Of a stretch of 28,859 bases of DNA, positions 913 to 28,859 are shown one piece after another. Under the pieces are notes generated by a model. The model made no database searches, was not told the DNA's origin, and saw only the letters and a list, made by a program, of their open reading frames with translations. Each line of letters begins with the position of its first letter. The stretch's first letter is position 1. A program made the position numbers and the translations under genes. The DNA is from a virus: IMG/VR virus record IMGVR_UViG_3300045988_070385; one strand, 5' to 3'.

Positions 913-934
913 GCCCCGCCCTTGCGGGCGGGGC
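913..934 (-). repeat. conserved GC hairpin H1 (GCCCCGCCC-GCAA-GGGCGGGGC on the sense strand), copy 1 of 4
   Basis: The 22-nt core is identical to 23110..23131, 26167..26188 and 27246..27267. It forms 9 consecutive G:C pairs with a GNRA-type loop on the minus-strand RNA and has no U tract after it. It lies 11 nt after the stop at 946 and 21 nt before the ATG at 891. Confidence 0.85.
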
Positions 935-945
935 GAGGGCGGTTG

Positions 946-1200
946 TCACCAAGTCTGCGCGAACTGCTCGACCTGCTCGGCCGTGAACGTCCTAGACGGG
1001 TTGTAAAACTCATCGCCCGGCTTGTGGAAGATATATTCGTCATACATTGCGTGGCCTTCATCGTCCACGGCTTGGTCGCGGCTGATAGGCTCGCAGTAGT
1101 GGAGTTCATAGTTGAGGCCGTCAAGCTTGTAGCCTTCGTTCCCCCAGCAGTGGAGAAGGTCTGCGTAGCTGTCTGTCCTGGTGAAGCTGTTGCTGGTCAT
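946..1200 (-). CDS. cassette small ORF 1, acidic 84-aa hypothetical protein
   Basis: The ATG directly follows promoter/UTR module A (AAAGGACAACAAAATG). The ORF is followed by hairpin H1. Confidence 0.6.
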   Translation of the reverse strand: MTSNSFTRTDSYADLLHCWGNEGYKLDGLNYELHYCEPISRDQAVDDEGHAMYDEYIFHKPGDEFYNPSRTFTAEQVEQFAQTW

Positions 1201-1261
1201 TTTGTTGTCCTTTCGTTTGTTTGGTAATTACATAATACAACAGTTTTGGCTACGACACGCC
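1201..1261 (-). promoter_or_regulatory. conserved promoter/5'UTR module, copy A
   Basis: Minus strand reads CGGCGTGTCG-N14-GTATTATGTAATTACCAAACAAACGAAAGGACAACAAA-ATG. The -10-like TATTAT is at 1232..1237 (+ coordinates) and the SD is GAAAGGA. Confidence 0.6.
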
Positions 1262-2053
1262 GGACTCAATCTGAAAGCCGAAGAGGTCAGTTTGCGACTG
1301 CATCGCTTGGGCGAGACTCCGAACGTTCCGTTCCGCATTCGTTGCGGGCTTGCGCGCCTGAGGCGGGTCGGGACGGTATTCATCGTTCCACCGTTCCCCA
1401 TTGAGCCATGTCGCGAAATTCGGGATAAACCTGGTTTCGACATTGGCGCACTGTGCGGCGAATGCCTGCACCTTGGCCATGAGGAAAGCGCTGTTCATGC
1501 CTACTTTCGCTTTACGCCACGCCTTATATGCGGCCATCTTGGCGACATGCTTCGGGTAGATCGCCCACAGTTGTTCGAATGCGTTCGGGTATTCTTCGCG
1601 CTTATGTGGCGCGGGTTCTACCGGTGCGGGTTCGCGTGCGGGTTCTACCGTGGTAGTCGATTCTGGAGCTTGGTAAAGCGTTTTATCAAGCATGTCAGGT
1701 TGTAGTGGCTTAATAGATTCCTCGTCCATCACGACATAGTAGACGTTGCTCGTATTACCCCCATTATCAAGCTTTCGCTTGCTGATGACAATGAGCCCCT
1801 TTTCCTCAAGCCCTTTCAGAGCCTTTATCACGGTTGGCTTGCTGAGCATACTCGCGGTGCTGAGTGTTGCTAGCGAGGGGAAGCACTTGCCGTTATCGTC
1901 TGTCCTGTCTGCCAGTTCCAAATAGATCAGCTTCTCGTGGGCGTTAGAGAAGTGCTTGTTTCGCATTACCCAATGGCGCACAGACATAAAACCTTGATTG
2001 TTTGTCATAATTTTTAGTTTACTCTGGTTTGCGGAAAATTGCAAGTTGGGCAT
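1250..2053 (-). CDS. replisome organizer / replication initiator-like protein with N-terminal winged HTH
   Basis: The N-terminal part (LIYLELADRTDDNGKCFPSLATLSTASMLSKPTVIKALKGLEEKGLI) resembles a wHTH. A Pro/Glu/Ala linker follows, then a C-terminal part (FEQLWAIYPKHV...FATWLNGERW) typical of phage DnaD/organizer-like proteins. The start is uncertain: ATG 2053, 2008 or 1987. Confidence 0.6.
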   Translation of the reverse strand: MPNLQFSANQSKLKIMTNNQGFMSVRHWVMRNKHFSNAHEKLIYLELADRTDDNGKCFPSLATLSTASMLSKPTVIKALKGLEEKGLIVISKRKLDNGGNTSNVYYVVMDEESIKPLQPDMLDKTLYQAPESTTTVEPAREPAPVEPAPHKREEYPNAFEQLWAIYPKHVAKMAAYKAWRKAKVGMNSAFLMAKVQAFAAQCANVETRFIPNFATWLNGERWNDEYRPDPPQARKPATNAERNVRSLAQAMQSQTDLFGFQIESGVS

Positions 2054-2246
2054 ATATTCTTAATTGGTTCTTCTTAAAAAGTTGGTTCTCCTTAAATGGT
2101 TATACTTAGGGTCAACGACGTTTACCACCTTTGTAAAAGATTTTTACAAGGGGTCATGCAATGTCGTTTACAAGGTTATTTAATGTCATTTCCTACGCGA
2201 CACAGACAATTAGACAAAGTCCGCCCATTGCGGTATTATCAAAAAT
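2054..2246. promoter_or_regulatory. divergent early control region with operator-like repeats and a rightward promoter
   Basis: Inverted repeat TTGTAAAA-gat-TTTTACAA at 2131..2149. TTTACAAGG occurs at 2143..2151 and 2167..2175, and CGTTTAC at 2119 and 2166. Direct repeats AATTGGTTCTTCTTAA and AGTTGGTTCTCCTTAA lie at 2061..2095. Rightward promoter: TTAGAC (2210..2215), 18 nt, TATTAT (2234..2239). Confidence 0.55.
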
Positions 2247-4522: not shown

Positions 4523-4551
4523 TTGCATTATCGTGCAAGACAATGTATATT
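4523..4551 (+). promoter_or_regulatory. candidate promoter for the tRNA island
   Basis: TTGCAT (4523..4528), 17 nt, TATATT (4546..4551), with TG immediately upstream of the -10. Confidence 0.4.
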
Positions 4552-4645: not shown

Positions 4646-4730
4646 GGAACGTTGCGCGAGCGGTTTAAGCGGCCACCCTGCTAAGGTGGTAACTGGCAAC
4701 GGTTCGGGGGTTCGAATCCCTCACGTTCCG
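4646..4730 (+). tRNA. tRNA-Ser (anticodon GCT), class II with long variable arm
   Basis: Manual cloverleaf. Acceptor GGAACGT/ACGTTCC; anticodon stem CCACC/GGTGG with loop CTGCTAA; 16-nt variable arm (ACTG-gcaa-CGGT); T arm GGGGG-TTCGAAT-CCCTC; discriminator G. No CCA is encoded. Confidence 0.85.
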
Positions 4731-4915
4731 CAATCCTAACGTTAACCTAGGATAAGCGTTAGGCGGTTGAGTACACTACTCTTGCAGTGACTCAGACGCA
4801 ATATAAAAGGGCGGCTAGTGGGCACGGTCGATAGTGAGGTAACATGTGCTCTCCGGCCAACGGTTGGCGGTCGATAGGATGGCGGCGGTAAGCGCCAATA
4901 TCCAAGCTGACCAAT

Positions 4916-4987
4916 TTTCCCGTGGTGTAATGGGTAGCACGGCAGTCTTTGGAACTGTTTGTTTTGGTTCGAGTCCAGACGGGAGAG
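4916..4987 (+). tRNA. tRNA-Gln (anticodon TTG)
   Basis: Manual cloverleaf. Acceptor TTTCCCG/CGGGAGA (U1:A72, G73, as in bacterial tRNA-Gln); D arm GTGT-AATGGGTA-GCAC; anticodon stem GCAGT/ACTGT with loop CTTTGGA; T arm TTTGG-TTCGAGT-CCAGA. Confidence 0.8.
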
Positions 4988-5041
4988 CGAGACGCGGTAG
5001 AGGTCAGGTGTCTGCCGCGTGCCATCTGCCTAGTAGGTGGA

Positions 5042-5115
5042 AGGGCTGTAGTTCAGTGGTTAGAACGGCTAGCTTCGGTTAGTGTATGTCGCGGGTTCAA
5101 ATCCCGTCAGCCCCC
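5042..5115 (+). tRNA. tRNA-like gene with an aberrant anticodon arm (cUUCGg hairpin in place of a 7-nt loop); pseudo-tRNA or decoy candidate
   Basis: The D arm (GTTC-AGTGGTTA-GAAC) and T arm (GCGGG-TTCAAAT-CCCGT) are canonical. The acceptor AGGGCTG/CAGCCCC has an A1:C72 mismatch. The anticodon arm is 16 nt, not 17, and folds best as GCTAGC-TTCG-GTTAGT. The variable region is 7 nt. Confidence 0.55.
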
Positions 5116-23109: not shown

Positions 23110-23131
23110 GCCCCGCCCTTGCGGGCGGGGC
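23110..23131 (-). repeat. conserved GC hairpin H4, copy 4 of 4
   Basis: The same 22-nt core as H1-H3. It lies 8 nt after the stop at 23140 and 22 nt before the ATG at 23087. Confidence 0.85.
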
Positions 23132-23139
23132 GGGTGGTG

Positions 23140-23376
23140 TCAGTCGCAGAGTTCTTCAATCTGTGCTTTATATGTGGTGTCATAGCTGGTTTCATGGAAC
23201 TTGTTGACACGTCCGAACGTGAAACCGTATTTGCGTTCACATTTGCGACGGATTGAACGGAGAATGTTCTTTGTTTCCACCGCTTCACTGTAGAACGTGT
23301 AGAAGGCGTCAAGTTCCGGGATGTCGATGGTTTGTTTTCCGTCGAAGTAGTTGATGTTGATTGTTGCGGTGGTCAT
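23140..23376 (-). CDS. cassette small ORF 4, 78-aa hypothetical protein
   Basis: The ATG directly follows promoter/UTR module D, and the ORF is followed by hairpin H4. Confidence 0.6.
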   Translation of the reverse strand: MTTATININYFDGKQTIDIPELDAFYTFYSEAVETKNILRSIRRKCERKYGFTFGRVNKFHETSYDTTYKAQIEELCD

Positions 23377-23441
23377 TTTGATTTGTCCTTCCTTGCTTGG
23401 TTGATAGTTTTATAATACATCACTTGGTTATGCGACACGCC
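23377..23441 (-). promoter_or_regulatory. conserved promoter/5'UTR module, copy D
   Basis: Minus strand reads CGGCGTGTCG-N14-GTATTATAAAACTATCAACCAAGCAAGGAAGGACAAATCAAA-ATG. Confidence 0.55.
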
Positions 23442-23707
23442 GAGCGTTCGACAAACACGCCCCAACACATCGGATACTTCAGCGGCACCAATCGGGATAC
23501 GCGATAATCAGCGCCATACCGTACTTCGGCAAGTCGCATGATAAATTGGTGGGCTCGCTCACGACCTTGGGCAACCCTCTTGTCGTACCCACGCTTACGT
23601 TTAACCCAACCGTCGGCGGTACGCTCGTACACCTCCCAGACGACCCCGATTGCGGAGTAGTGCGCCATCACCTTATAGTCATAGGCGTCAACGTTCTTAT
23701 ACTTCAT
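23420..23707 (-). CDS. hypothetical protein, 95 aa
   Basis: Strong AAGGGAGG SD before ATG 23707. The C-terminal ...ERSACRITK is encoded by the conserved promoter-module DNA. Confidence 0.55.
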   Translation of the reverse strand: MKYKNVDAYDYKVMAHYSAIGVVWEVYERTADGWVKRKRGYDKRVAQGRERAHQFIMRLAEVRYGADYRVSRLVPLKYPMCWGVFVERSACRITK

Positions 23708-23718
23708 TGCATCCTCCC

Positions 23719-24048
23719 TTAATACATTTCCGCAATATGACGGGTGAACGCGCATACGCTCACTGCCGTGAGATAGCCACGTAATCCCGTCTTCCTCGCC
23801 ATGAGGAGCCACACGGGGAAAGTGATGAAGGGAGCGAGACACCAACCGCATGTGGCGAGATTTCGTAGACTGTCAGCCTGTAATGCCTCGTGTGTCTGCC
23901 CCTTCGCATCATACTGCGCTTCGATCGTATTGCAGGCTTCCAGCCATGCTCTGCGCGCCTGTTGCAGACCATGCCCGAAACCGTCCGTGAGCTGGACGCA
24001 AGTGTTGAGGTATCCGGCGACTAGTCCGGCCTGCACTGCCTTGTTCAT
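23719..24048 (-). CDS. hypothetical protein with C-terminal hydrophobic segment, 109 aa
   Basis: AAAGGAG SD and ATGA overlap with the upstream small ORF. Hydrophobic stretch CGWCLAPFITFPVWLLM. Confidence 0.5.
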   Translation of the reverse strand: MNKAVQAGLVAGYLNTCVQLTDGFGHGLQQARRAWLEACNTIEAQYDAKGQTHEALQADSLRNLATCGWCLAPFITFPVWLLMARKTGLRGYLTAVSVCAFTRHIAEMY

Positions 24049-24191
24049 TTCTTTGCTCCTTTGCGGTAGGTGTAGAGTGCCGCCAACATGCACGCGACAC
24101 CGATAATATTAATTAAGTTCATGTTTTCGTTCGCGGATAGCACGATTCCGAAGAGAAAGAGTATCGCTACGAATCCGTCTGTTTTCTTCAT
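24045..24191 (-). CDS. small membrane protein, 48 aa (driven by promoter module E)
   Basis: MKKTDGFVAILFLFGIVLSANENMNLINIIGVACMLAALYTYRKGAKK, with two hydrophobic spans. The ATG directly follows module E. Confidence 0.5.
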   Translation of the reverse strand: MKKTDGFVAILFLFGIVLSANENMNLINIIGVACMLAALYTYRKGAKK

Positions 24192-24254
24192 TTTATTGTC
24201 CTTCCTTGTTTGGTTGATAATTACATAATACACTATTTGCGGACACGGCACGCC
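24192..24254 (-). promoter_or_regulatory. conserved promoter/5'UTR module, copy E (variant CGGCGTGCCG)
   Basis: Minus strand reads CGGCGTGCCG-N14-GTATTATGTAATTATCAACCAAACAAGGAAGGACAATAAA-ATG. It lies immediately downstream of a U-tract terminator. Confidence 0.55.
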
Positions 24255-24255
24255 G

Positions 24256-24299
24256 AAAATAAAAAAAGGGAACCAACGAAATTCATTCGTAGATTCCCC
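24256..24299 (-). terminator. Rho-independent terminator (minus strand)
   Basis: Minus strand reads GGGGAATCTACGAATGAATTTCGTTGGTTCCC (GGGAA/TTCCC and ACGAA/TTCGT pairings) followed by TTTTTTTATTTT. It starts 6 nt after the stop at 24305. Confidence 0.7.
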
Positions 24300-24304
24300 T
24301 TTTA

Positions 24305-25468: not shown

Positions 25469-25876
25469 TTAGTTTTCCTTCCTTACCGGTAATCCGTCTT
25501 CCGTGGTGGCGAGCATGTATGCTTTCAGCAGTGTGTCCGCTATTTTTTGACGTCGTGCGGGGGGAATACGCCGGAACTTGGTTTCCCAATGCGCGACCTG
25601 ACATTGCCGTACCCCGTACATTTGCGCCATTTCCCTTTGGCTGATACCGAACACGTTGCGTAGATATTTCAACCGTTCGCTATCGTCCAATGAGTCAAGA
25701 TACGTATTCCGATTGTTGACGGTACGCAGGTTATTCTCATGGTCGATGGTGAATAGGTTGCCGTTTTTTGACTGGATCAATTGCGCGTAAATGTCTTCTT
25801 TAATCCTGTATTCTCTGTCCCCGGCGACGGTTTTGAACGTGATGGGCATGGCACCCGGCCATAGCGTGAGTCTCAT
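25469..25876 (-). CDS. XRE-family HTH protein (HTH in the C-terminal half)
   Basis: LRNVFGISQREMAQMYGVRQCQVAHWETKFRRIP matches the Cro/C1-type HTH pattern. AAGAGGA SD and ATGA overlap with the upstream gene. Confidence 0.65.
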   Translation of the reverse strand: MRLTLWPGAMPITFKTVAGDREYRIKEDIYAQLIQSKNGNLFTIDHENNLRTVNNRNTYLDSLDDSERLKYLRNVFGISQREMAQMYGVRQCQVAHWETKFRRIPPARRQKIADTLLKAYMLATTEDGLPVRKEN

Positions 25877-26145
25877 TTATCCTCTTTCTCTTCGTCGTAG
25901 TGGACGTAGGCGATTCCGTTACCAGTTTTGAATTGTCCTCTTACGATGTTTTTGTAAATCGTCGGTTCGATTCCAGCCAAGTAGAGCAAGTCTAGTGCGT
26001 CTTCTCTGGAATTTGGGTAGATTGCGATCTGCGGCGTGTAGTCTTTCAACTCAATGTCCGGCGACTCCGCGGCCACTTCGTCAAGCTGGGCTAGCGTCTC
26101 TCTGAGGAATCTGACGTATTGGCCGAGGGTTATTGTGTCTTTCAT
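25873..26145 (-). CDS. hypothetical protein, 90 aa (first gene after hairpin H3)
   Basis: ATG 26145 is preceded by AAAAGGAATAATA, 21 nt from hairpin H3. The longer ORF-track version runs through the hairpin. Confidence 0.55.
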   Translation of the reverse strand: MKDTITLGQYVRFLRETLAQLDEVAAESPDIELKDYTPQIAIYPNSREDALDLLYLAGIEPTIYKNIVRGQFKTGNGIAYVHYDEEKEDK

Positions 26146-26166: not shown

Positions 26167-26188
26167 GCCCCGCCCTTGCGGGCGGGGC
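26167..26188 (-). repeat. conserved GC hairpin H3, copy 3 of 4
   Basis: The same 22-nt core as the other copies. It lies 7 nt after the stop at 26196 and 21 nt before the ATG at 26145. Confidence 0.85.
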
Positions 26189-26195
26189 GGGGGGG

Positions 26196-26399
26196 TTATT
26201 CTCCAACGATTTCCGCGAACTTGCCGGTGAGCCACTTGAGATATTCTTTTCTGGTGGCGAATTTGCCGTACGCGTGTGGTGTCTCGCAGTATTCGCCTGT
26301 TGCGTTCTCATTCCACCATGTTTCGACGTCTACCGTGCCGTCCTCGTTGGTGGTGGCCTTGATGTTGTATCCCTTGAAGCAATTGGTTTCGGTGGTCAT
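26196..26399 (-). CDS. cassette small ORF 3, 67-aa hypothetical protein
   Basis: The ATG directly follows module C, and the ORF is followed by hairpin H3. Confidence 0.6.
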   Translation of the reverse strand: MTTETNCFKGYNIKATTNEDGTVDVETWWNENATGEYCETPHAYGKFATRKEYLKWLTGKFAEIVGE

Positions 26400-26460
26400 T
26401 TTGTTTGTCCTTTCGTTTGTTGGTAATTAAATATTACCACATGTGGGGACGCGACACGCC
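26400..26460 (-). promoter_or_regulatory. conserved promoter/5'UTR module, copy C
   Basis: Minus strand reads CGGCGTGTCG-N14-GTAATATTTAATTACCAACAAACGAAAGGACAAACAAA-ATG. The -10 is TAATAT, preceded by TGG. Confidence 0.6.
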
Positions 26461-26463
26461 GGA

Positions 26464-26631
26464 CTAGACCCAAGACATGACAATAAACCCCATTCCAGCA
26501 AGACCGATAAGGAGAGTAGTCAATGTGAGAAGGACCATAAAATTATCCTCCCACTGAAATGCAATCCACAAAGCGACAGCGGAAACAATCGTAAGCTCCA
26601 AGAAACCGACGAATATGGCAATCCTTTTCAC
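26464..26631 (-). CDS. small two-span membrane protein, 55 aa
   Basis: Translated by eye: VKRIAIFVGFLELTIVSAVALWIAFQWEDNFMVLLTLTTLLIGLAGMGFIVMSWV. The GTG start overlaps the ERF stop (GTGA). Confidence 0.4.
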   Translation of the reverse strand: MKRIAIFVGFLELTIVSAVALWIAFQWEDNFMVLLTLTTLLIGLAGMGFIVMSWV

Positions 26632-27245: not shown

Positions 27246-27267
27246 GCCCCGCCCTTGCGGGCGGGGC
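27246..27267 (-). repeat. conserved GC hairpin H2, copy 2 of 4
   Basis: The same 22-nt core as the other copies. It lies 9 nt after the stop at 27277 and 21 nt before the ATG at 27224. Confidence 0.85.
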
Positions 27268-27276
27268 GGGGTGGGT

Positions 27277-27471
27277 TTAGAGTGCGTGTTCCTTGAGTAG
27301 TTCGGTGAACTCGTCGGTGTCTACCTGTTCATAATCGGTGTAGCCGTTCATGTCGCAGATGGTGCGGAGGTCTTTCGCGGCTCCGTAGGTGTCCCAATTA
27401 CCATCATCCTGTCCGCTGTTTTCAAGGTAGCTGATGATGTAGGCTTCTGCTGTACTGAGGTTGATTTCCAT
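27277..27471 (-). CDS. cassette small ORF 2, strongly acidic 64-aa protein
   Basis: MEINLSTAEAYIISYLENSGQDDGNWDTYGAAKDLRTICDMNGYTDYEQVDTDEFTELLKEHAL has 15 Asp/Glu against 3 Lys/Arg. The ATG directly follows module B, and the ORF is followed by hairpin H2. Confidence 0.6.
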   Translation of the reverse strand: MEINLSTAEAYIISYLENSGQDDGNWDTYGAAKDLRTICDMNGYTDYEQVDTDEFTELLKEHAL

Positions 27472-27532
27472 TTTGTTTGTCCTTTCGTTTGTTGGTAATT
27501 ACATAATACATCATTGTTGAGTACGACACGCC
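27472..27532 (-). promoter_or_regulatory. conserved promoter/5'UTR module, copy B
   Basis: Minus strand reads CGGCGTGTCG-N14-GTATTATGTAATTACCAACAAACGAAAGGACAAACAAA-ATG. Confidence 0.6.
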
Positions 27533-27954
27533 GAACGCGGTAGAATCTCGCCCAACCGACTCAACCCCCGCGCGCTCTCAAGACCACGGAACCGTTTAGC
27601 TGATTGCGCGGACTCTTCCAAACCGCGCCCACTCAACCGTTTCCGCCGATACTCCCAACTCGCCTCACCCTCAATGCCCAGTGCGCGCATTTCACGCGTA
27701 ATGTCGGCTTCGGAAGGCTTATGGTCACGTTTCCATCTGCACCAAAACGCATTGAGATCGGCGGGCATGAGATACGGACGCTTCTTCGCATATTCCGGGC
27801 TTGCGAAAAATTGGCGTATGGCTTCTTTCGCCACGTCCAATCGCATGTCCTGCGCTAACGCTTCCGTCCATGCGGCCACCTGGATATCGGTCACAAGACG
27901 ATTATCAAAAGCGCTGGCATAGGTTAGGAGCGCCTGCACCTGCAACTTGTTCAT
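27511..27954 (-). CDS. hypothetical protein, 147 aa
   Basis: AAGGATGG SD and ATGA overlap with the upstream gene. The C-terminal ...PRSACRTQQ is encoded by promoter-module DNA. No confident motif. Confidence 0.55.
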   Translation of the reverse strand: MNKLQVQALLTYASAFDNRLVTDIQVAAWTEALAQDMRLDVAKEAIRQFFASPEYAKKRPYLMPADLNAFWCRWKRDHKPSEADITREMRALGIEGEASWEYRRKRLSGRGLEESAQSAKRFRGLESARGLSRLGEILPRSACRTQQ

Positions 27955-28364
27955 TTCAATCCATCCTTACATTCCGCTTGCATCATTTTCACGATTCGCA
28001 ACATGTTTTGCAAATCACCTTTACGCAGGTATATCCAGAAAAAGCCTTCACGGTAGGTCACAGCGCGCCTAGCAATATCAAACAGGTTGTCCATGTAGAG
28101 ACAGCACTTCCCCACTTGCATGAGATTGTGCGCGTCCAATGGTTCGCCATCGATTTGCAAGCGGCATTTCTCTCCATTGTCGATAGCCCTCTGTAGATAC
28201 CATTCCGCTTTCTGCAAGTCTTCGAGTGGGCGCCCCTTAAGTCGGTGCCGCCACACGTATTTTATCGCGTTACCTACGCAAAAGCTGTGATATTGCGCGA
28301 CTTCAATGCATTCGCAAGGCTTCGTGTTGTCGGCGTAGTGTGCTGGATGATTGATAGTGTTCAT
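27951..28364 (-). CDS. DUF3310 / SaV-like phage protein
   Basis: The N-terminal INHPAHY...CECIEV...GNAIKYVWRHRLKG...DLQKAEWYL matches the DUF3310 pattern as I recall it. AAGGGAG SD and ATGA overlap with the MTase stop. Confidence 0.55.
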   Translation of the reverse strand: MNTINHPAHYADNTKPCECIEVAQYHSFCVGNAIKYVWRHRLKGRPLEDLQKAEWYLQRAIDNGEKCRLQIDGEPLDAHNLMQVGKCCLYMDNLFDIARRAVTYREGFFWIYLRKGDLQNMLRIVKMMQAECKDGLK

Positions 28365-28852
28365 TTTGCTCCCTTTGATATGGTTTCAATTCTTCTCCCA
28401 AGCCAACGCATAACCGGCACTGCCATGGAATTACCTAACACGCCGATTCGCTCACGGTACCTCAGACAGTCAGTCCATCCAGGCGGGAACCCCTGGAGCG
28501 CTTCGCACTCTTCAGCAGTAAGCCGCCTGAAAGGATACACGCCACCCCAAACGTAGGGCGGGTCATTGCGATTATGGCGAAGCAATGTCGGGCAAGCGTC
28601 GCTCATTGTTGGCGCAGAAGATTGCGTGTCTATGCGGCATTGGACTTTATTACTTCCTGACAAGCGTCCCTCAAGCCTGCTGGCTCGGAGAGCTTCGGCC
28701 TTTTGTCCAGCCTTGCAAGTATCCCCCTGCAAGCTTGCACTGTCATAAAGCACGTTGACGGCACGTCTCCAGTCGTGAGTATTGATGACAAGGAAGATTC
28801 TTTTACGTCGTTGGGGTACTCCGAAGTATTGAGCGTCAAGCACTCGCCATGC
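28361..28852 (-). CDS. DNA (cytosine-5)-methyltransferase, C-terminal segment (motifs VIII-X), continues from 32..475 across the circular junction
   Basis: AWRVLDAQYFGVPQRRKRIFLV (motif VIII), a variable target-recognition region, TAEECEALQGFP (motif IX) and LGNSMAVPVMRWLG (motif X). This frame is +1 relative to the N-terminal segment at the G8 tract (28852..28859, equivalent to 48..55). Confidence 0.85.
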   Translation of the reverse strand, partial: AWRVLDAQYFGVPQRRKRIFLVINTHDWRRAVNVLYDSASLQGDTCKAGQKAEALRASRLEGRLSGSNKVQCRIDTQSSAPTMSDACPTLLRHNRNDPPYVWGGVYPFRRLTAEECEALQGFPPGWTDCLRYRERIGVLGNSMAVPVMRWLGRRIETISKGAK

Positions 28853-28859
28853 CCCCCCC
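28805..28859. repeat. 55-nt terminal overlap, identical to 1..55
   Basis: See the feature at 1..55. Confidence 0.9.

Follow-up and report, generated by a model that had tools for sequence, protein, structure and literature searches.

The 28,859-nt window (the whole stretch of viral DNA analysed here) carries five leftward sites that very probably function as promoters, and comparison of their sequences makes it fairly probable that they belong to one portable cassette, in which a −10 element of the sigma-A type is paired with a noncanonical 10-mer that is read by a component of the host. The five sites, numbered P1 to P5 by coordinate (Table 1), would be copies of a single expression cassette working as follows. 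The 10-mer, CGGCGTGTCG at P5, would span about −37 to −28, in place of a −35 hexamer, and would recruit the host RNA polymerase through a component that pre-exists in the uninfected cell. Transcription would start ∼7 nt downstream of the −10, and the short unstructured leader with its strong Shine-Dalgarno (SD) sequence would favor efficient translation of a small orphan protein. A GC-rich hairpin behind the small ORF would then attenuate transcription or stabilize the 3′ end, so that this ORF is expressed far above the replication and recombination genes behind it. The 10-mer could be read by a host activator that binds DNA and contacts RNA polymerase, or else through an alternative recognition mode or sigma factor of the host enzyme, whereas a phage-encoded protein is an unlikely reader.

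Table 1. Coordinates of the promoters, leaders, first ORFs, hairpins, and associated elements in the window
Feature	Coordinates	Strand	Details
GC hairpin, cassette 1	913..934	−	
Cassette 1 first ORF	946..1200	−	84 aa, orphan
P1 promoter	1232..1262	−	10-mer 1253-1262; GTATTAT 1232-1238; 10-mer in last codons of DnaD-like replication initiator ORF 1250-2053
Canonical-type promoter TTAGAC-18-TATTAT	2210..2239	+	G at −13; −10 ends 7 nt before HTH_17 ATG
Canonical-type promoter TTGCAT-17-TATATT	4523..4551	+	upstream of three tRNA genes
GC hairpin, cassette 2	23110..23131	−	
Cassette 2 first ORF	23140..23376	−	78 aa, orphan
P2 promoter	23412..23442	−	10-mer 23433-23442; GTATTAT 23412-23418; 10-mer inside end of ORF 23420-23851
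ORF behind P3	24045..24191	−	48 aa, membrane-like
P3 promoter	24225..24255	−	10-mer CGGCGTGCCG 24246-24255; GTATTAT 24225-24231; drives (putatively) ORF 24045-24191; without GC hairpin
Intrinsic terminator	24256..24303	−	long stem, U7AUUUU tail, −23.5 kcal/mol, z = −5.5; abuts P3 10-mer
GC hairpin, cassette 4	26167..26188	−	then SD + ATG at 26145
Cassette 4 first ORF	26196..26399	−	67 aa, orphan
P4 promoter	26431..26461	−	10-mer 26452-26461; GTAATAT 26431-26437; starts 2 nt past stop of ORF 26464-26631
GC hairpin, cassette 5	27246..27267	−	then SD + start of ERF gene
Cassette 5 first ORF	27277..27471	−	64 aa, acidic; no Pfam/PHROGs family
P5 leader	27472..27502	−	31 nt, A/C-rich; SD AAAGGA; MFE 0; ends at ATG of ORF 27277-27471
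P5 promoter	27503..27533	−	10-mer CGGCGTGTCG 27524-27533; 14-nt spacer; GTATTAT 27503-27509; 10-mer within last codons of ORF 27511-27954

The window is a circular assembly of ∼28,804 bp, since bases 1-55 are identical to bases 28805-28859. Its rightward arm (∼2247-22533) encodes a small HTH_17 protein, SSB, and RusA; the structural proteins, namely TerL, a portal-MuF fusion, a protease-capsid fusion, the tape measure, and tail proteins; and a GH25-LysM-Cpl7 lysin. The leftward arm, running from 2053 down across the junction to ∼22382, encodes a DnaD-like replication initiator, a split C5 cytosine methylase, a DUF3310 protein, ERF, a YqaJ exonuclease, an XRE protein, an HNH nuclease, and many small orphan ORFs. 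Neither an integrase nor an immunity repressor was detected among the window proteins scanned against Pfam and PHROGs. The methylase lies in two minus-strand ORFs (32-475 and 28361-28843), of which the N-terminal one covers positions 1-132 of the 324 in the Pfam model and the C-terminal one covers positions 269-323, leaving the middle of the domain model unaccounted for. Its break falls at a G8/C8 run (homopolymer 47-55 = 28851-28859) that coincides with the assembly overlap, and the split could represent a frameshift, a phase-variable tract, or an assembly error; only three related loci have the gene. Rfam returned three tRNAs and nothing else in the window (4646-4731, 4916-4988, and 5042-5115), comprising tRNA-Ser (GCT), tRNA-Gln (TTG), and a third to which Rfam gives 45.7 bits and ARAGORN an abnormal two-base anticodon (tc).

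The host is probably Bifidobacterium, to judge from the lysin and TerL similarities: the nearest isolated phages are those of Bifidobacterium asteroides (TerL identity of 52%), and the closest cellular homologs of the lysin come from B. adolescentis, B. dentium, and B. longum. Two contigs from MAGs labelled Acutalibacteraceae are caveats for this assignment. One of 29,897 bp (P0003), with a lysin 92% identical to that of the window, is probably a mis-binned phage genome; the other, of 15,727 bp (L097), has a motif match without the leader, apparently by chance. The lysin cluster of this phage family has 1,360 member sequences in public data, a size from which the family appears to be abundant there. 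No match to GenBank phages was obtained by BLAST with the 6.8-kb leftward arm, and the 73-nt module gave chance matches only (E ≥ 0.2). The motif has no homolog in BlindBasel1, the nearest isolated phage, which has no repeated module. A literature search for the 10-mer string returned only primers and unrelated sequences.

Within the window, the pattern CGGCGTGYCG-N14-GTAWTAT has five exact matches, all on the minus strand, against 0.31 matches expected at up to three mismatches (100 shuffles, none of which reached six). The five leftward copies with a 14-nt gap that were claimed in a preliminary description are thus borne out in each case (5/5), although the ranges given there omit the last base on the upstream side: the 10-mers run to 1262, 23442, 24255, 26461, and 27533. 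Pairwise identity among the copies is 96% in the 10-mer, 46% in the spacer, and 94% in the −10 heptamer. Their alignment contains three conserved blocks, namely (i) the 10-mer, (ii) GTAWTAT, and (iii) a leader of the form GTAATTACCAAC..AAAGGA..AAAATG, and conservation extends down to the ATG; upstream of the 10-mer, the five aligned copies show no similarity. An ATG with an SD sequence lies 29-36 nt downstream of each copy, the promoters are co-oriented with the genes, and the leaders are A/C-rich and predicted to be fully unstructured. The −10 of all five sites is a TAWWWT hexamer with a preceding G, which is of the sigma-70/sigma-A type TAnnnT. As the preliminary description had stated, the 10-mer is unlike TTGACA: the hexamers at 16-, 17-, and 18-nt spacers read CGTGTC, GCGTGT, and GGCGTG, respectively, and a consensus promoter scan called none of the five sites.

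The proposal that the 10-mer lies inside the ends of the preceding ORFs holds for P1, P2, and P5, whereas P4 starts 2 nt past a stop codon and P3 follows a terminator. Likewise, the 10-mer does force the peptide tails ...ERSACRITK (ORF 23420-23851), ...PRSACRTQQ (ORF 27511-27954), and ...ESGVS (ORF 1250-2053) on the upstream proteins. At P3, transcription must restart, since the site abuts a canonical terminator; in the relatives, too, U-tract terminators directly abut many copies of the module. Other readings of the 10-mer were rejected: as part of an upstream hairpin or terminator its pairing is inconsistent across contexts, and as a palindromic operator it has only 6 of 10 self-complementary positions. 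In the window's clade, the predicted start region (27495-27502 and its equivalents) carries a perfect 8-bp palindrome, GTAATTAC, which doubles as another −10-like heptamer right behind GTATTAT and is absent from P2 and from other clades. This palindrome may be a clade-specific operator; as a core element it was set aside, being kept in the window's clade only.

The two rightward candidates with canonical-type −35 boxes (Table 1) are as previously described, and the HTH_17 transcript looks leaderless because the TATTAT of its promoter ends 7 nt before the ATG. A degenerate sixth copy of the module, proposed at 2198-2206, did not withstand analysis: it matches at 6 of 10 and 3 of 7 positions (eight mismatches over 17 positions), is missed at up to three mismatches, and lies in a stretch kept in only one near-identical relative. 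The divergent control region (2054-2246) also contains two direct repeats, TTAAG(G/A)AGAACCAA(C/T), just upstream of the DnaD-like gene, as well as TTTACAAGG repeats and an inverted repeat at ∼2130-2176. These repeats may be operators or origin iterons; within the region, only 2057-2116 is kept in several relatives.

A scan of IMG/VR yielded 73 related viral loci; most are contigs of ∼30 kb that come from a single metagenome, and a locus carries at most five copies of the module. The exact 10-mer is present in 114 of the 124 unique copies from these loci, and when we anchored on the −10 and leader alone, to avoid circularity, it stood at N14 in 88 of 98 unique copies, with a one-mismatch form in seven more. 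Across the 124 unique full modules, the spacer takes 56 different sequences with a mean identity of 47%, its length being 14 nt in 111 copies and 13 nt in the other 13, while the leader ranges in length from 21 to 40. GTATAAT occurs in 12 modules, with a 13-nt spacer in all of these that were examined, and the −10 variants (TATTAT, TAATAT, TATAAT, and TATATT) keep the A at −11 and the T at −7, always with a G before. A pair of near-invariant blocks whose distance stays fixed while the intervening sequence mutates freely is what marks a bipartite protein-recognition site, and on this comparative evidence, the module is a bipartite promoter and more than mere duplication.

This pattern bears directly on the reading in which the 10-mer has no role in transcription and is kept either as a homology block for cassette recombination or as the target of a recombination or homing enzyme, its spacing being simply inherited. 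Crossovers clearly fall in the promoter region, and the phage encodes the recombination proteins ERF and YqaJ together with an HNH nuclease. However, the spacer has diverged into its many variants without change of length, while the leader length varies, which indicates selection on the two blocks and their distance, not on homology as such. Moreover, the 10-mer is kept where it encodes the C termini of three unrelated proteins and in the terminal repeats of a phi29-like genome (see below). We regard an exclusively recombinational role as very improbable.

Recombination at the module nevertheless has clear traces, which are best seen together with a second repeat family. This family, GCCCCGCCC-GCAA-GGGCGGGGC, follows the first small ORF behind P1, P2, P4, and P5 and precedes the SD and ATG of the next gene. 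The four copies are identical 22-nt hairpins whose loop on the transcript strand is of the GNRA type (GCAA), and each closes its cassette on the downstream side. The preliminary description had left the promoters unconnected to these hairpins and had thus overlooked the promoter-ORF-hairpin cassette and its reshuffling. Their 9-bp stem (∼−22 kcal/mol) is followed by ACCCAA... and not by the U-tract of an intrinsic terminator, and true U-tract terminators are present in the same phages. In the relatives, the stem carries compensatory changes (GCCCCACCC...GGGTGGGGC and GCCACGCCC...GGGCGTGGC), whereas the loops are variable. In B. breve, transcript ends are often located at GC stem-loops without U-tracts (PMC5746004). 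We infer that the hairpin acts as an attenuator or as a 3′-end stabilizer.

Among the relatives, 78 of 131 unique first ORFs have the hairpin after them, and the small ORFs behind the promoter fall into at least nine unrelated families of 60-115 aa; the first ORFs of the window have no match in Pfam or PHROGs. The 3′ end of the 147-aa gene that forms the context of P5 has seven different ORF families behind it in different genomes, single ORF families stand behind up to four different upstream contexts, and spacer alleles are reassorted among relatives. Further, among the relatives there are promoters cut short and joined to ORF ends, as well as 10-mers in tandem, and such remnants point to past crossovers. 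As shown by this comparison of sequences, the ∼65-bp promoter-leader doubles as a homologous recombination joint, at which small-ORF cassettes are exchanged, lost, and moved both within the family and between unrelated phages.

The arrangement recalls the PeSL cassettes of T4-type phages, which comprise an early promoter, a GC-rich stem-loop, an SD, and a start codon (Arbiol et al. 2010, PMC2839356; Comeau et al. 2014, PMC4122927). In both systems, repeated elements flank small orphan ORFs, relatives differ by ORF insertion, deletion, or replacement, and crossovers fall in the element; of the PeSL hallmarks, we found here the repeated promoter, stem-loop, SD, and ATG, the small orphan ORFs, and the gain, loss, and replacement of cassettes at the element. 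The two differ in that (i) here the ORF stands between an upstream promoter and a downstream stem-loop, whereas PeSL is one intergenic motif; (ii) the −35 is sigma-70-like in PeSL and a noncanonical 10-mer here; and (iii) the present carriers are ∼29-kb siphoviruses and phi29-like podoviruses with a probable actinobacterial host, without sequence homology to PeSL. The morons of lambdoid phages (discussed in PMC2839356) are promoter-gene-terminator units that have neither promoter nor terminator in common and whose movement is attributed to illegitimate recombination. They resemble the present cassettes as autonomous small transcription units between essential genes, but here all units have the same flanks.

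Carriers unrelated to the window bear on the question of what reads the 10-mer. The contig IMGVR_UViG_3300045988_003160 (L015 and L066) is a complete 17,757-bp genome of a phi29-like podovirus, with genes for Phi29_MCP, the connector, the tail knob, and DNA_pol_B_2 (a PolB of the protein-primed type), and it has perfect inverted terminal repeats of 119 bp (L015, 1-119; L066, 13665-13783). These repeats hold the 10-mer, N14, GTATTAT, and a homologous leader, positioned 57 nt from each end and pointing inward, and the genome has no protein in common with the window at a blastp E ≤ 0.01. In a second phi29-like contig (L002), the module lies 74 nt from the contig end. A lineage of phages with an SNF2 helicase (L031, L047, and L069) carries one copy of the module, with only weak lysin and ERF similarity to the window. 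In protein-primed phages such as phi29, the promoters in the terminal repeats should fire first, so that the reader must already be present in the cell; and because phages without common proteins share the element on what are expected to be their earliest promoters, a host-encoded reader is probable.

The preliminary description had suggested a dedicated factor acting on the leftward modules, with a phage activator among the options; a dedicated phage factor is not supported, given the occurrence of the same module in the phi29-like genome and in the SNF2-helicase lineage. On such a reading, the 10-mer would be the site of a phage activator or of sigma appropriation, like a MotA box, and the five promoters would form a "middle" class that is switched on by the early HTH_17 protein (2247-2426) or by the XRE protein (25469-25876). 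T4 middle promoters combine a MotA box at −30 with a sigma-70 −10 and depend on sigma appropriation by AsiA and MotA. The likeness is real, in that the 10-mer stands at the MotA-box position as a conserved non-TTGACA element of ∼9-10 bp that replaces the −35 hexamer and is paired with a good −10; the window also encodes two small HTH proteins, one of them behind a canonical, leaderless-looking promoter, and the 10-mer and canonical promoter classes coexist in one genome. However, Pfam and PHROGs scans of the window proteins examined revealed no sigma-, MotA-, or AsiA-like protein, and, in a further difference from T4, the element is common to phages without shared proteins and sits on the expected earliest promoters, including those in the phi29-like terminal repeats. 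The window's own HTH proteins do not travel with the motif outside the window's clade: the XRE protein has no tblastn or tblastx match in the motif-bearing clade B locus L045, a locus that spans the interval from YqaJ to ERF, within which the window has its XRE gene, and the HTH_17 protein is found in six loci only.

Further evidence comes from the rightward tRNA promoter of L054 (minus strand, offset ∼7040), the ortholog of 4523-4551, where CGGCGTGTTT-N14-GTATATT replaces TTGCAT-17-TATATT and homology with the window resumes at the −10. From this swap, a near-consensus 10-mer (8/10) and a canonical −35 appear to be interchangeable, and the element is not limited to leftward genes, contrary to the idea of a factor dedicated to them; a 10-mer standing in for a canonical −35 also tells against a phage activator. 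Two considerations temper the argument from phage distribution: each phage lineage may have an analogous factor, as small phage DNA-binding proteins can diverge past blastp detection, and the cross-phage occurrences are not independent inventions, because the cassette spreads horizontally. Taken as a whole, a phage-encoded activator seems unlikely to us.

We therefore return to a reader supplied by the host. The window's two TTGnnn-type promoters share with the five sites a G at −13 and a TAWWWT −10 (TTAGAC-18-gTATTAT and TTGCAT-17-gTATATT), and since these −10 features are common to both, the 10-mer class and the canonical class probably use the same sigma, differing only at the −35. A separate DNA-binding factor is hinted at by the clade B ERF promoter (L045 and L046), in which the 10-mer is followed by 24 nt containing TTGACG-17-TAATAT and is thus displaced upstream by exactly 10 bp, or one helical turn, from its usual position; as this is a single lineage, the hint in favor of such a factor over a sigma contact is a weak one. 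Among the points against the main reading, ten near-invariant bases exceed what a contact by sigma region 4 normally needs. Pho boxes offer a precedent, for there the PhoB site replaces the −35 and recruits RNA polymerase through sigma region 4. They are built from 11-bp direct repeats, whereas the 10-mer, although similarly placed at the −35 position beside a normal −10, is a single 10-bp word without repeat periodicity. An OmpR/PhoB-type direct-repeat reading was rejected, as the spacers lack an 11-bp periodic repeat. The promoters described in B. breve are canonical (TATAAT/TTGACA with a 17-bp spacer; PMC5746004).

A negative role was also considered, in which the 10-mer would be a repressor operator (stoperator-like, for early shut-off by the phage, or read by a host repressor) placed over the −35 region of promoters that depend on the −10 only. 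The stoperators of cluster A mycobacteriophages are scattered, stand at no fixed distance to a −10, and need the immunity repressor of a temperate phage; the start-associated sequences (SAS) of cluster K adjoin start codons and are not bipartite promoters. The 10-mer shares with stoperators an asymmetric conserved word in one orientation relative to transcription, and the module resembles SAS in that its conservation reaches into the ribosome site and start codon. A −10-only promoter is conceivable, given that the −10 provides most of the promoter strength in B. breve (PMC5746004). The stoperator-like role that had been raised is rejected: every exact 10-mer in the window belongs to one of the five promoters and stands at a fixed spacing, with 1-mismatch matches elsewhere at chance level, and the integrase and immunity repressor of a temperate phage were not detected among the window proteins scanned. 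Unrelated phages would, moreover, each need a repressor with identical specificity, little would be gained by keeping a host repressor site on the earliest promoters, and the swap for a canonical −35 in L054 suggests that the element acts positively. A repressor operator is, in our assessment, quite improbable.

The cellular genomes provide an observation that counts against a host role for the motif. In 185,579 species representatives searched with the exact 17-base pattern only, and thus as a weak negative, the motif was never found in a promoter-like context; the 53 singleton matches are about the number expected by chance, and none has the phage leader or comes from Bifidobacterium. Several of these matches look like coding sequences of HTH regulators. 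The same species genomes contain no prophage copy of the module. The matches also include one orthologous tRNA-adjacent locus at which many Pasteurellaceae (Haemophilus and Rodentibacter; a subset of L079-L127) keep the exact 31-nt pattern; lacking the leader, this match appears to be coincidental and unrelated to the phage module.

Repeated early promoters, promoter/stem-loop cassettes in phages, and the replacement of a −35 by another word (as in T4 middle promoters) are already known. What is new is the 10-mer itself, the fact that siphoviruses, phi29-like podoviruses, and an SNF2-helicase lineage with a probable Bifidobacterium host have it in common, and the host reader that this sharing implies. 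A wider proposal, which we advance only tentatively, is that these phages have exposed an undescribed mode of RNA polymerase recruitment in Bifidobacterium, in which a novel host activator, or else another sigma specificity, acts at −37 to −28. This mode would be exploited by no fewer than three unrelated phage lineages, with the promoter-ORF-hairpin unit serving as a mobile cassette that carries candidate host-takeover or anti-defence genes between them.

Were a host component to read the 10-mer, this word would open direct access to an undescribed piece of Bifidobacterium transcription and would provide a compact, strong, and portable promoter-leader for a genus in which genetic tools are scarce. 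If the host is Bifidobacterium, the 17,757-bp genome would be that of a phi29-like phage of that genus. Further, at least nine families of small phage proteins, probably made very early and highly expressed, are marked out by the cassettes, and such properties are typical of host-takeover and anti-defence factors. Finally, the shuffling of the cassettes carries the PeSL idea, that regulatory repeats act as linkers in recombination, beyond T4-like myoviruses to small siphoviruses and to phi29-like podoviruses of what is probably a Gram-positive gut bacterium.
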